DNA from: a virus
DNA: 64,000 nt
Direction: 5' to 3' (one strand)
IMG/VR virus record: IMGVR_UViG_3300047198_000026
Location: 1 to 64,000 of that record
Both the position numbers and the translations under genes were made by a program. The notes under the pieces were generated by a model. That model made no database searches. It was not told the DNA's origin and worked only from the letters and a program-made list of their open reading frames with translations. Shown in pieces: positions 14,807 to 29,739 of the stretch. The first letter of the stretch is position 1; the number at the start of each line of letters is the position of its first letter.

Positions 14807-15410
14807 AATGTCCTCCTACTTCCACGCATGACCATTAGGACATACGCAGTATATCCCATTAAGTCCCATCTTGAATTGTCCTATCAGTCCACATATAGGA
14901 CAGAGTATGGTACTGCAGGCTATAACCAATGCCACAATCAAAGCCAACAAATACTTCTTTGTCTTACTCATAATATCACCTCCTTATGCTCCTTGGCTTG
15001 TTTAGTCTTATTCTCCCCAATGCACAGTGGACAGGAATGTAAAGATTAAGTATAGAATGGCGGGTACTCCAACAATTGCAGCCCCTGCTATAAGAACTAT
15101 GATGGGGCTGAAAATATAGTCTAGTATGTAACTCTCTTTCTTCTCAGGTTGTTCTGTTATATCCCCTTCTCTCTTCCCACAGTGAGGACAACAGATATAC
15201 CTTGTGAAATCATGTGTATGTTCCATAGTATCACCTCTCTTAATAAAGATGGGCAGTTTTACATGATGCCCAGCATGGATTAGTATTTTATAGCCACTAA
15301 TCAAATTGCTATATTGTGATGCCAAATCAATGGCATCTTTTCTGCGTTTATCCAATCCGTTCCGATTGGCTTCTACTTAATATTCTTTTAAGGCACTTAC
15401 GAGTATAGGC

Positions 15411-15458
15411 TCACTTACTATCTTTCCCCTCATTGGCCAATGGGCAGATAGTAAGTGA
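15411..15458. repeat. 13-bp perfect inverted repeat (hairpin)
   Basis: TCACTTACTATCT ... AGATAGTAAGTGA. Confidence 0.85.
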
Positions 15459-15479
15459 TTATTAAGAGGTCTAATTGTG

Positions 15480-16040
15480 AAAATATCTCCCCCTACTAAT
15501 TACCCCGCTTTTAGCCTGTGTCAGCGTGTAGTATTACACCTTACCTTGGGCATATCTACGAAAATAATGTTCAGGTTCAATCCCGAATTTCCTCAATCCC
15601 TAATCAGGGTTCAACGCTGTCCATAGTGTTGCCACCTTCACTACCTTTACAGCGATTGTGTTGTTCAGGAGTAATATAGTCGTTCCAGACTATAGAAGGT
15701 TACGCATCTCCTACCTATCCATCCTTTTTGTCTTTCGACAGGAGTTTTCCTCCACGCATTGCCTTGCTTTTGGTCAGGATGGCTTCGGATTCATCGGATT
15801 GGCTTCAAGGGTTTCCTTTAGTCCGCACTACTCATCCTGTCTATTCCATCTTATTTGGTCATACAGTTCTTTAACTGGATACCTTGATATGGACATTCAA
15901 GGACTTTCGTGGATGTCTTTACTCCCTACTCTCTGCCTTTCCATTCGTGTATCCCCAGTAAGTCTATTGAGTTTTAGGGCTTTGAGGCTACCTCTGTCCG
16001 TACACCAGAGACTTCAGCCGACTGGGTTGCGATATTAAGA
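15480..16040 (-). ncRNA. Candidate large structured non-coding RNA (boundaries approximate)
   Basis: About 560 nt with no minus-strand ORF of 60 aa or more, dense in hairpins including GNRA loops (TGTC-GAAA-GACA, GGTG-GCAA-CACT), directly downstream of a tRNA-like element. Confidence 0.55.
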
Positions 16041-16082
16041 TACACTATGTTCTGCTTTAGTCAAAGCATAACTATATCTACA

Positions 16083-16153
16083 TGGTGTCCCAATAGGACT
16101 TGAACCTATAACATCGCCTATCGAGCGATTGCTCTGCATTGAGCTATGGGACA
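16083..16153 (-). tRNA. Atypical tRNA-Ile(GAT)-like element
   Basis: TGTCCCA/TGGGACA acceptor, GCTC/GAGC D stem, ATCGC/GCGAT stem with loop TCGATAG, ATAGG-TTCAAGT-CCTAT, CCA; 3-nt variable region and irregular 3' end. Confidence 0.6.
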
Positions 16154-16168
16154 TTATGTCATATTGTT

Positions 16169-16699
16169 AAGGTCAAGGGATTAATGGACAGGGCAAAAGG
16201 TCATGTTACTATGCTCTCTTCACTTCATTCTGTTTCCTCAGGATGATTGTGCAACGACTCACAAGGTCATCCGCCTTCTTATTACTGGACTCTTTTGCCT
16301 TGATTCCTGCGGGCAAGGTAAACCCGTATTTCTTCAAGCCTTGCTCTGTGAAGAATAACATCGCTCCACCTTTCCATACTCTTACAGTGAAGTCGCCAGA
16401 TTTGGCAAGGTCATCCTGAAATGCTACGGGGTTGCTCACTCCAGTCTTTCTCAAGGCATCGTTAAGACCTGAATATACCGTATGGATACCAGTCTTGTAT
16501 CCCGTAATTCGGTCTTTCTTATCCTTGATAGGCTGTCCCCAGTCTTTCCGCAGGGCTTCGATGACTAACATAATGGGCGTAATCTTGATTACTTTCGTTT
16601 CGTCTAACATAATGGCACATCCTTTCTCCCTATAAGGGAACATTAGTTGTTAGTTGATAGGGATGACCATTTAGCCCTGCCCATTATCCCCTTGACCTT
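16169..16699. repeat. About 36-bp imperfect inverted repeats (16169..16204 and 16663..16699) bracketing one ORF
   Basis: AAGGTCAAGGGATTAATGGACAGGGCAAAAGGTCAT vs reverse complement AAGGTCAAGGGGATAATGGGCAGGGCTAAATGGTCAT. Confidence 0.85.
16209..16610 (-). CDS. Basic hypothetical protein, first gene of the left arm
   Basis: GIHTVYSGLN...KGGAML; start at MLDET after AAGGA. Confidence 0.7.
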   Translation of the reverse strand: MLDETKVIKITPIMLVIEALRKDWGQPIKDKKDRITGYKTGIHTVYSGLNDALRKTGVSNPVAFQDDLAKSGDFTVRVWKGGAMLFFTEQGLKKYGFTLPAGIKAKESSNKKADDLVSRCTIILRKQNEVKRA

Positions 16700-17025
16700 T
16701 TCTGATTTAGAAGCAACTTGTCTGAACTGGTAATGTCTTGATCAATCCAACAAGCTCCTATGTGCCTTACTTTCTGCCAAACTTCACTTTTGACAATGCC
16801 AAAGGGCAAGGTTTAAGGGTTAGTTAAAACATTTCAAGCACTTAGCCCTCCTGCCCGTATGACAATCGCCCATTGGCATGGCATATCGCCCAAGGGGGAG
16901 GGGGGGTCACCATACCAAAGATGTAGATGCCCCTGACCACTAAAAAACCCTCCACGGGGTCTGTGACCAAGGAGAATCTGTAAAATCGGCAAATCCCCAC
17001 CCTATAGCGAATTGACCCCTGCCAA

Positions 17026-17062
17026 CCGTCAGGATGCCAGTTTATATACCCATAGGGACTAT
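17026..17062. promoter_or_regulatory. Intergenic motif, copy 2
   Basis: Matches 3933..3969; lies in the divergence region between the arms. Confidence 0.55.
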
Positions 17063-17086
17063 ATAATAGTATGGAGGACAAATAAC

Positions 17087-17371
17087 ATGGACAAAAATGA
17101 CACAAAGCAGAGGACCCGTTACATAGGCCAAGTGGCCGAATGCATACTCTATGAGGATGCAATTAAGGCAACCAAGTATGTCAGCCCTTCTGAGACCATT
17201 AAGGCAACCCGGAGGGGAAGGAAGGATGGCAGAAGTAAGCACCAAGAGATGATCCTGACAGTTGGACCCCCCAACTATGCCGAAAGGGCGTTCATTAAGA
17301 TTGCCAGAAAGTCAGGAGAACCATTCCCCATTCAGAGGATACAGCTCAAGTGGAAGAAAAAAGACAAATGA
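17087..17371 (+). CDS. Basic hypothetical protein
   Basis: GGAGG RBS; first gene of the right arm. Confidence 0.7.
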   Translation: MDKNDTKQRTRYIGQVAECILYEDAIKATKYVSPSETIKATRRGRKDGRSKHQEMILTVGPPNYAERAFIKIARKSGEPFPIQRIQLKWKKKDK

Positions 17372-27867: not shown

Positions 27868-29739
27868 GTGGCTGATTCAGATTTCAGGAAGAATCCAGTA
27901 GATTCGGTGACCTCTCTGTTTGACATAATCAAACGATGGAGAGATCCATATGAGAGTCGATGGAAGCGGTTTTATAAATTATATAGAAGTTATAGAGACG
28001 TACAGACCACGACACTCAAATCGAATATCTTTGTTCCGTATATATTTTCAATTGTTGAAAGTATCGTGCCAAAAATGCTAGGCACCCTTTTCAACACACG
28101 CCCCATTATCTCCGTTATGCCAAGGGGAGGAGAATATGGCGGGCTGGCCAAATTGCTAGAGAAGGTTTTAGAATATCAGCTTGATGAAGATCAGTTGGAA
28201 CTCTTCTCTAAGATCCTTGAGTTCTTTAAAGAAGCTGTTATCTATGGAACAAGTTTTGCCAAGGTAATTCCTAGGTTTGGTGATGATGATCTTGTGTCCT
28301 TTAATTATATTGACATGGAGCCAGTTGACCTATTTAATATCTATCCAGATTACAGGGCCAAGTCAATTAAGAGAATGAAGTTTATTATCCAGTTGTCATA
28401 TGTAGACTATGACGAGTTGGAAAGTCTGTATACACAGAAGTTCTATAAGAATGTGCCCCAGCTCCTTAATATGTTAGAGAGCATGGCCATTGTAGACGAG
28501 GCCAAAAGGAAAAGGTTAACCAGCGTAGGAATTCTAGATGAGTATGGTTTTGACCCAGACCGTAAAATAATAGAAGTTCTTGAATACTGGGACCGTGATC
28601 AGATCTACACAGTAGGCGCCAGAAGGGTATTGCTGAAGGAAGAAGACAACCCATTAGGCAAGTTATTGCCTTTCATGATGGCAAGATACATACCCGTACA
28701 GCATGAACTCTATGGCATTGGTATCCCAGAGATTTCAGAGAGTCTTCAGGAGGAATTAAACAGTGTTAGGAACCAACGGGCGGATAACGTCAACCTCATT
28801 ATCAATCGTATGTTTATTGCTAACAAGTATGCTGATATTGATTTTGACAGTCTTGTTTCTTACCCGGGCAATGTTATCCTTACCAACGATGTAACAGCAA
28901 TTAAAGATTTGGATACCCGAGATGTTACAAAATCGGCTTACATGGAAGAGGAAATAATCAAGCGCGACATTGACAATGCAACAGGTGAATATGAGTATTC
29001 CAGGGGGGCCACACCTCCAAGGCGTGAGACGGCAACTGGTATCGTCAGGTTGCAGCAGGCCAGTAACATTAGGTTTGATACAGTGGTGAAGTTGGTGGAG
29101 TTTACTATCATTAGGTCTATTGCTAAAGCATTCTTGTGGTTAGACTATCACTTCTTGCCAAGGGAAGATTTCATAAAGATTGTTGGTGAGGGTGACTATC
29201 AAAGGAATCAAGGAGACCTATTCTATTCCCAAGACCTAGATGAGATCTTAAAGATGTTCCACTTCCAGCCAATGGGATCATCCACAACGGCTGTGAAGGA
29301 AGTTAGGATCCAGCAGATTATGCAGGCTTATAAGTTGTTTAATCAGGATCCCTTTGTCAATCAGATTGAACTTCGTAAGTTAGTTATGGATGTTCTTGAT
29401 TTGAAGAATCAATCTAGATTGTTGATTGAAGATCCAGTGAAGTATGCCCAGATGATATTGGCCCAAGCCCAAGAACAGGGCGGAGGCCCCCCTCCAGGGG
29501 GAGGTCCAGGCGGACCACCTCATCCAGGACAACCACAGAAGGGGCCGCAGGGTCCACCTGCCAAGAGGCCACAGGCCAAAGGGCAGTCCCAAGGACCGCC
29601 ATCCCAAATGCCTCCACAAGTTCCTCAACCAGGAAGAGGGACTCAACCATTAGAAAGACAGTTATCTGAAATGCTTAAGATATCCGGTGGCGGAATGAGC
29701 CGTACCGGAGGAATGCCAGCAGCCCAAGTGATGGCTTAA
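27868..29739 (+). CDS. Portal protein
   Basis: 623 aa after TerL; SNIFVPY, YGIGIPE, ETATG motifs; Pro/Gln/Gly tail. Confidence 0.85.
   Translation: MADSDFRKNPVDSVTSLFDIIKRWRDPYESRWKRFYKLYRSYRDVQTTTLKSNIFVPYIFSIVESIVPKMLGTLFNTRPIISVMPRGGEYGGLAKLLEKVLEYQLDEDQLELFSKILEFFKEAVIYGTSFAKVIPRFGDDDLVSFNYIDMEPVDLFNIYPDYRAKSIKRMKFIIQLSYVDYDELESLYTQKFYKNVPQLLNMLESMAIVDEAKRKRLTSVGILDEYGFDPDRKIIEVLEYWDRDQIYTVGARRVLLKEEDNPLGKLLPFMMARYIPVQHELYGIGIPEISESLQEELNSVRNQRADNVNLIINRMFIANKYADIDFDSLVSYPGNVILTNDVTAIKDLDTRDVTKSAYMEEEIIKRDIDNATGEYEYSRGATPPRRETATGIVRLQQASNIRFDTVVKLVEFTIIRSIAKAFLWLDYHFLPREDFIKIVGEGDYQRNQGDLFYSQDLDEILKMFHFQPMGSSTTAVKEVRIQQIMQAYKLFNQDPFVNQIELRKLVMDVLDLKNQSRLLIEDPVKYAQMILAQAQEQGGGPPPGGGPGGPPHPGQPQKGPQGPPAKRPQAKGQSQGPPSQMPPQVPQPGRGTQPLERQLSEMLKISGGGMSRTGGMPAAQVMA

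Follow-up and report, generated by a model that had tools for sequence, protein, structure and literature searches.

GOLLD is a large non-coding RNA (ncRNA) of phages and prophages that is often encoded beside tRNA genes, with which it is possibly co-transcribed, and ROOL, which averages ~580 nucleotides (nt) and is of unknown function, is found in phages and prophages near tRNA islands; both RNAs form protein-free cages (PMC5737381; bioRxiv 10.1101/2024.12.08.627333). The present analysis concerns a 64,000 nt window, which is the first 64 kb of the 102.6-kb linear IMG/VR virus record IMGVR_UViG_3300047198_000026 (designated G000); the source of the record is a ~103-kb uncultured freshwater-sediment phage. 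An earlier note, made from the letters of this window alone, had proposed that the minus strand between 15480 and 16040 encodes a large, ornate ncRNA next to a tRNA-like gene. The candidate resembles GOLLD in that it is phage-borne, measures several hundred nt and has a tRNA directly on its 5′ side, and its size and context resemble those of ROOL. In contrast to the candidate, members of GOLLD are often >800 nt and carry a conserved 3′ domain, to which nothing in the candidate is comparable. The candidate is a member of neither GOLLD nor ROOL, because the covariance models of both families were tested and neither was matched. What the locus does contain is a long untranslated gap, in the slot in which two related phages (G005 and G006) carry a structured element of no known family. 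We put at close to an even chance the reading that the gap yields a discrete, folded early RNA which is the local counterpart, either diverged or replaced, of a new large RNA of this phage clade. Such an RNA would be ~600 nt in size.

An ORF (open reading frame) scan of the left arm of the window showed that the ORF-poor gap described in the earlier note is real and that it is larger than was claimed. The untranslated gap runs from 15227 to 16083 on the minus strand (15227..16083, 857 nt) and is thus wider than first reported. It is bordered on its 5′ side by a tRNA gene and on its 3′ side by a gene of 72 amino acids (aa). The tRNA-like gene turned out to be a genuine tRNA-Ile(GAU) gene, detected by both ARAGORN and the Rfam tRNA model; it was the single tRNA at the locus even at E ≤10, and a degenerate tRNA array was rejected. 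The 72-aa gene begins at the ATG at 15226 behind a strong ribosome-binding site (RBS; AGAGAGGTGAT), and not at an upstream TTG. With the exception of a tRNA-Ala spot, the left arm had no region of at least 200 nt other than 15356..16034 that lacked a minus-strand ORF of at least 35 aa. TAA, TAG and TGA were all present in each of the three minus-strand frames of the gap, at 13 to 28 stops per frame, and the longest stop-free segments corresponded to ~40 aa. A recoded genetic code was rejected, since with all three kinds of stop codon in every minus frame no alternative code rescues a gene. Hidden small genes were also looked for, and the gap contained no RBS-led ORF of at least 10 aa other than one 19-aa frame with a TTG start. 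The gap is therefore non-coding on the gene strand.

When the whole window was searched against Rfam 15 at gathering thresholds only tRNA was matched, and a cmscan of 15000..16500 with permissive filters gave no match in the gap at E ≤10. Neither GOLLD (RF02032, gathering threshold 150 bits; 10 candidates scored) nor ROOL (RF03087, gathering threshold 99.1 bits) gave a match at E ≤10 in the whole 102.6-kb genome; for ROOL the control genomes were also silent, so that this search had no positive control. The best G000 matches to the group II intron model RF01998 (D1D4-1) were outside the gap (E ≥0.88). The candidate, which the earlier note had been unable to assign to a family by eye, consequently belongs to no Rfam 15 family.

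Comparison with related phages was anchored on the first early gene, which lies upstream of the tRNA in G000. Its homologs are the first early gene of G005, G006 and G007, which are complete or nearly complete relatives of 106-113 kb. The encoded proteins share the motif G-[IL]-H-T-V-[FY]-S-G-L-N; the G000 protein showed 24-28% identity to those of G005 and G006, whereas the latter two were 55% identical to each other. In G000, G005 and G006 this gene is enclosed by long inverted repeats (Table 1), the arms of which have no common sequence between the three genomes. As the structure is kept while the sequence is not, which is as expected for an RNA stem, the repeats appear to form a conserved long RNA stem, and this could be an RNase III-type site for excision or stabilisation of the first-gene mRNA. 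In G007 a 19-nt inverted pair brackets the second gene instead. The G000 gap was found directly downstream of the repeat-bracketed first early gene and on the early-gene strand, and it is syntenic with the element of G005 and G006. The untranslated sequence that follows the bracketed gene is 857 nt in G000, 688 nt in G005 and ~1060 nt in G006. The gap and the relatives' element share the clade, the slot, the strand, a similar length and the lack of an Rfam family. They differ in that the relatives lack the tRNA that separates the bracketed gene from the gap in G000, and in that no sequence or structure similarity was detectable between them.

The G005 and G006 sequences at this position aligned over ~650 nt, with blocks of identity split by variable helices and by frame-breaking indels. 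The conserved untranslated element within this alignment is ~400-500 nt long and has a mean column identity of 65%, and no conserved reading frame was found in the alignment. RNAalifold, run on these two sequences, returned 84 consensus pairs, 29 of which had changed on both sides, and the consensus included a long-range helix that closes ~390-465 nt. Two domains were modelled. In a structure that was derived from, and scored on, the same two sequences, 53/53 pairs of these domains form in both G005 and G006, 19 of them via changes on both sides. The 5′ domain accounted for 31/31 pairs that form in both sequences, with 11 double changes, and 0/500 shuffles were as good; when the partners were moved by 1-3 columns as slid controls, 0 to 1 double changes were counted. 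In the 3′ domain 8/22 pairs had changed on both sides, and one hairpin had all four pairs swapped while its 12-nt loop was nearly unchanged. Conserved motifs were GGGCAGAG-hairpin-CUAUA...UAUAGGUUUCAU in the 5′ domain and GACRGG-AAAAACUAA-hairpin-CAACGAG...AUGUCGGCCYGUC in the 3′ domain. The G-U pairs of the element agree with the early-gene strand, and the minimum free energy (MFE) z-scores were -3.1 for G005 and -2.8 for G006. The elements matched no Rfam family and had no match in any GenBank phage. The relatives' element is structured and, on the evidence of two sequences only, is a candidate new large phage RNA with a real structure. In G006, the ~400 nt between the element and the next clear gene (L049:16290-16693) have no counterpart in G005; they hold a possible 48-aa ORF with a GTG start and long hairpins.

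All of the short stems listed in the earlier note occur in the minus-strand sequence of the G000 gap. A base-pair probability calculation gave a pairing probability of at least 0.7 for CUCUG/CAGAG, AUAGUC/GACUAU, CGCUGU/ACAGCG, CCCU/AGGG and GUGUA/UACAC, while the CCUUGA/UCAAGG and GGAG-GAAAA-CUCC stems face competing long-range pairings. Many helices of the gap reached a probability of at least 0.8 in an ensemble calculation on the single sequence. A central multi-helix domain was also predicted, in which GGAGU/ACUCC, UCCACG/CGUGGA and CCUUG/CAAGG would enclose two sub-hairpin arms. The MFE z-score of 15400..16083 (684 nt, 20 shuffles) was -2.69, and all of the 200-nt windows over 15201..15900 had negative z-scores (-1.3 to -3.1).

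A number of results weigh against the gap of G000 encoding a folded counterpart of the G005/G006 element. The folding energy of the gap is beyond chance only modestly: the core 15400..16040 (641 nt) had a z-score of -1.67, with 4/60 shuffles folding as well, the antisense strand of the core had a z-score of -3.3 and so folded better than the proposed strand, and coding windows elsewhere in the arm also reached z-scores of -2 to -3.4. The earlier note had named an energy no better than that of shuffles as evidence against the RNA, and on this point the outcome was borderline (z -1.7 to -2.7, with an antisense strand that folds as well). No relative of the gap sequence was found by blastn ('distant') against 50,697 GenBank phages, by exact-motif scans of IMG/VR or by blastn against the complete relatives, and there is therefore no covariation evidence for G000 itself. 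Of the large ncRNA that the earlier note proposed, then, a non-coding sequence of no known family 3′ of a tRNA stood, together with an element in the same slot of the relatives, and covariation and more than modest folding did not. The note had also described a 13-bp hairpin at 15411..15458, which was recovered by an inverted-repeat search and is perfect. It was rejected as an intrinsic terminator because no U tract follows its AU-rich stem, the next letters being GCCUAUACUCG, and the terminator scan did not list it. It may instead be a processing or stability hairpin.

Searches of G000 with the relatives' element also count against the two being the same RNA. An nhmmer search with the G005/G006 alignment found nothing in the gap, the best G000 match being elsewhere (E 7.9). 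Covariance models of the 3′ domain (R1) and the 5′ domain (R2), searched against 2.6 kb with filters off, gave E-values of only 0.83 (best match of R1) and 1.7 (match of R2 in the gap), and the latter was outscored by a match of R2 inside the coding gene. The weak, non-significant alignments of the two models in the gap have the expected strand, and their order matches that in the relatives. They comprised a GAAUGG...GCAGAG block near 15935 and a hairpin of four pairs, CGCU-GACACAGGCUAAA-AGCG, at 15506..15526, the loop of which resembles the loop GAU(U/A)(G/C)AGACUAA of G005 and G006. A hairpin model of 35 positions (R3), built from G005 and G006 alone, was used to scan the whole window without filters, and the gap hairpin was outside the 14 best matches. 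In three-way MAFFT alignments G000 kept 32% of the relatives' pairs, which was equal to the slid controls. The resemblance of the hairpin and of GGCAGAG, which was noticed post hoc, thus failed the ranking and structure-projection tests and is only a lead. Additionally, the genes downstream of the gap are not conserved in the relatives. G007, which is identical to a further genome (G004) at this locus, has a gap of only 285 nt, in which a terminator-like hairpin followed by a promoter-like site was seen by eye, so that the clade can do without the RNA. Because the neighbouring protein is only 24-28% identical, a true homolog of the RNA could have become unrecognisable in G000; it may equally be that the slot was refilled with something unrelated.

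The explanation that competes most seriously is that the gap is a long untranslated leader or spacer. On this view several ordinary regulatory pieces would follow one another in the early operon: a secondary promoter behind the tRNA, hairpins for processing or stability and, for the 72-aa gene, its promoter or 5′ untranslated region (UTR). The remainder would be unconstrained filler from gene turnover in an early region that evolves fast. The gene-strand folding that is not clearly beyond shuffles, the equal folding of the antisense strand, the lack of similarity to the relatives' RNA and the short gap of G007 with its two features all fit this explanation, as do the promoter-like match at 16064..16037, the crowding of four or five strong, independent hairpins into the last 250 nt and the 65-nt section at 15246..15310, which behaves as a separate module common to another phage. 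Set against this, the genes of the arm otherwise abut one another, which makes a gap of ~860 nt exceptional; phage genomes seldom contain as much as 0.6 kb of neutral filler; and two relatives have retained, in this slot, an element that is demonstrably structured. We regard a leader or spacer as a serious possibility, if on balance a doubtful one. It is unlikely that the gap is what remains of decayed or recently disrupted early genes (one or several), or of a mobile insertion that decayed beside the tRNA. The early regions of the clade turn over fast, the downstream genes differ between G000 and G005/G006, the stop-free segments of the gap are ~40 aa at most, and tRNA genes are common points of insertion and recombination. 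The numerous stops nevertheless leave no long open stretch in any frame, and neither blastn-level similarity to any phage DNA nor translated similarity to the relatives' loci was found. The gap contained no internal repeats and no inverted mobile-element ends, and the phage was identical in four sediment runs, so that an assembly artefact is not the cause.

Two further explanations were considered, both of them less probable again. An element that acts as DNA, for example an origin of replication, a site of packaging or one for the winged-helix-like protein of the adjacent first gene, would suit a position <~1 kb from the divergent arm switch, near which the GC skew changes sign, and the product of that gene is probably nucleic-acid-binding according to its model. 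No iterons, direct-repeat arrays or AT-rich block were found in the gap, the GC content of which (41.5%) is close to that of the window, and the relatives vary in ways that leave base pairs intact, G-U pairs among them, a sign that selection acts on the RNA rather than the DNA; we consider such an element very unlikely. Least probable of all, and barely credible in our view, is that the 126-aa ORF on the plus strand (15658..16038) is a real gene that runs against the early arm. The earlier note had named its translation as a finding that would speak against the RNA. No ORF in the gap is longer, and the good folding of the plus strand may reflect some constraint on that strand. Its GTG start has no RBS, its product is rich in Leu, Ser, Phe and Pro, and no PHROG match or homolog was found for it, nor is it a called protein in a collection of 5.8 billion clusters. 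Its codon score of -0.07 was under those of all 22 sense ORFs of at least 80 aa in the arm, where antisense ORFs of similar size are common, and translation of this frame is therefore unlikely.

The transcription, processing, folding and function of the gap sequence are what we infer from sequence. If the gap does yield a discrete early RNA, early promoters in the divergent region at ~16700..17300 would drive a single precursor which contains, in order, the stem-bracketed first early gene, the tRNA-Ile, the large RNA and the small early genes. Host processing at the 3′ end of the tRNA would set the 5′ end of the RNA, with or without a contribution from the promoter-like site at 16064..16037, and its 3′ end would be protected or defined by the 13-bp hairpin and the next two hairpins (cluster 15318..15458). 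After its release the RNA would serve, in trans and at an early stage of infection, as a scaffold or decoy that is either free of protein or protein-binding. By analogy it may have a role of the kind that has also been proposed, without proof, for GOLLD and ROOL. In bacterial rRNA operons, with their spacer tRNAs and bracketing stems, and in the early mRNA of T7, with its RNase III sites, a single precursor is divided into separate stable RNAs by tRNA-processing enzymes and by RNase III, which cuts at long stems. The locus shows a similar succession: a bracketing stem of 30 bp, then the tRNA, then the long untranslated RNA. It differs from an rRNA operon in that the bracketed unit is an mRNA and not an rRNA, and in that its processing is predicted from sequence.

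A broader proposal, for the clade as a whole, is somewhat more tentative than that for the gap alone. An uncultured clade of freshwater-sediment phages of ~103-113 kb may open its early operon with a stem-enclosed, winged-helix-like gene followed by a structured RNA of 400-650 nt which belongs to no known family; the copy in the window would be diverged, or an unrelated replacement, and fused to a tRNA as in GOLLD. If this is true, large ornate phage RNAs would gain a third kind in addition to GOLLD and ROOL. To our knowledge, hardly any large structured RNAs of bacteria and phages are described beyond rRNA, group II introns, GOLLD, ROOL, OLE and a handful more. One further family would be an independent case that brings a clear clue to timing, as the start of the early operon is among the first sections to be transcribed, and an RNA made first in infection would have a role in host takeover rather than in late functions. 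It would also bring a conserved protein neighbour as a possible partner. The window itself contributes a candidate and the definition of the locus; the solid evidence sits in the two related phages, that is, in two sequences only.

Table 1. Positions of the features of the locus in the window (G000) and in two relatives
Feature	Position	Strand	Remarks
Untranslated gap / candidate RNA	15227..16083	-	most structured part ~15400..16040
Predicted central multi-helix domain, 185 nt	15741..15925	-	pairing probabilities 0.73 to 0.99; single-sequence prediction
Conserved untranslated element, ~400-500 nt	G005 L039:~960-1460; G006 L049:~15830-16290	early-gene strand	
First early gene, 133 aa	16209..16610	-	motif GIHTVYSGLN; synteny anchor of the clade
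30-nt inverted repeats around first early gene	16169..16198 + 16670..16699	-	87% complementary
G005 bracket, 32 nt	L039 387-418 + 828-859		inverted repeats around first early gene
G006 bracket, 39 nt	L049 15208-15246 + 15677-15715		inverted repeats around first early gene
tRNA-Ile (anticodon GAU)	16084..16153	-	ARAGORN; RF00005 49.6 bits, model positions 1-71; directly 5′ of gap
Sigma-70-like promoter match, TTGACT, 16-nt spacer, TATCTT	16037..16064	-	9/12 consensus; just after tRNA
Perfect 13-bp hairpin, 22-nt loop	15411..15423/15446..15458	-	3′ side of candidate RNA
Hairpins CCAAUC/GAUUGG and GAUGCCA/UGGCAUC	15352..15369 + 15318..15337	-	pairing probability 0.95 to 0.99
~65-nt segment with two hairpins (15278..15302, 15251..15271)	15246..15310	-	just upstream of RBS of 72-aa gene
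72-aa gene, CxxC and hydrophobic tail	15008..15226	-	first after gap; no Pfam match; not conserved in relatives
ORF of 126 aa, GTG start, judged spurious	15658..16038	+	antisense of purine-rich strand

Several smaller features lie at the two ends of the gap (Table 1). To judge from its sequence, the promoter-like site just after the tRNA may be an independent start for a transcript of the gap; promoter-like sites in the region were no more numerous than in shuffles, and this one is a consensus match only. At the other end, the hairpins at 15318-15337 and 15352-15369 are terminator-like only on the plus strand, where they have T runs, that is, against the early-gene direction, and on that strand they might stop antisense read-through from further left. 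The segment at 15246..15310 was ~92% identical (4 differences) to contig pieces of a different phage from the same sediment runs. These pieces diverge from the window at both ends, with flanks that are unrelated to it. The segment is likely to belong to the 72-aa gene, as a promoter or 5′-UTR element, rather than to the large RNA, and it may be a promoter or operator module common to the two phages.

The first early protein belongs to a domain family of 381 representatives in a full HMMER search, with the core motif GIHTV[YF]SGLN and no Pfam model. Some proteins have this domain alone, others carry it in tandem copies, and in yet others it is fused to a Ser/Thr kinase or a pentapeptide-repeat protein. 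An AlphaFold model of the protein (predicted local distance difference test score 81.6) resembled the winged-helix domains of MarR/Crp-type regulators with modest scores (Z 5.7, Foldseek probability 0.85), and the protein is probably winged-helix-like and nucleic-acid-binding, as judged from this model. The first early protein had no match in a word-indexed search, made with a longer 144-aa form of the frame, and none in an IMG/VR scan. A protein with 50% identity to the first early protein (P0009), recovered by the full HMMER search, is encoded on a 47.7-kb JGI contig; two metagenome scans, two genome-contig scans and a tblastn search of GenBank phages for the DNA of P0009 gave nothing. Scans of viral contigs recovered G005 and G006 only.

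The window encodes a terminase, a major head protein, a helicase and an HNH endonuclease (PHROG search), and its gene arms diverge, leftward from ~16,650 and rightward from ~17,400, with the GC skew flipping sign near 17000. The portal frame at 27868..29739 aligned at 65-71% with its counterpart in the relatives; it retrieved annotated phage portal proteins and was <25% identical to any GenBank phage. Searches with the terminase and portal gave the clade, and the portal alignment yielded 25 IMG/VR relatives; portal identity between the window and G005/G006 was 73-74%. The ATPase of the window had no IMG/VR relative. No early genes downstream of the gap were common to G000 and G005/G006. CheckV estimated the completeness of the G000 record as 50%. 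The record (102.6 kb) is nevertheless probably near complete, because the complete relatives are 106-113 kb and the gene arms of G000 seem to wrap around the ends of the record; the complete relatives carry end repeats. The phage was contained in 11 freshwater-sediment DNA sequencing runs, with no RNA run among those listed as containing it. Pieces of it were identical to G000 in 4/4 sediment runs compared; there is therefore no microdiversity for the gap, and the gap sequence is not an assembly artefact. A separate section of G005 (92711-93535; L043:12711-13535), which adjoins the portal gene, has 825 nt without an ORF of at least 45 aa in a crude greedy ORF map.

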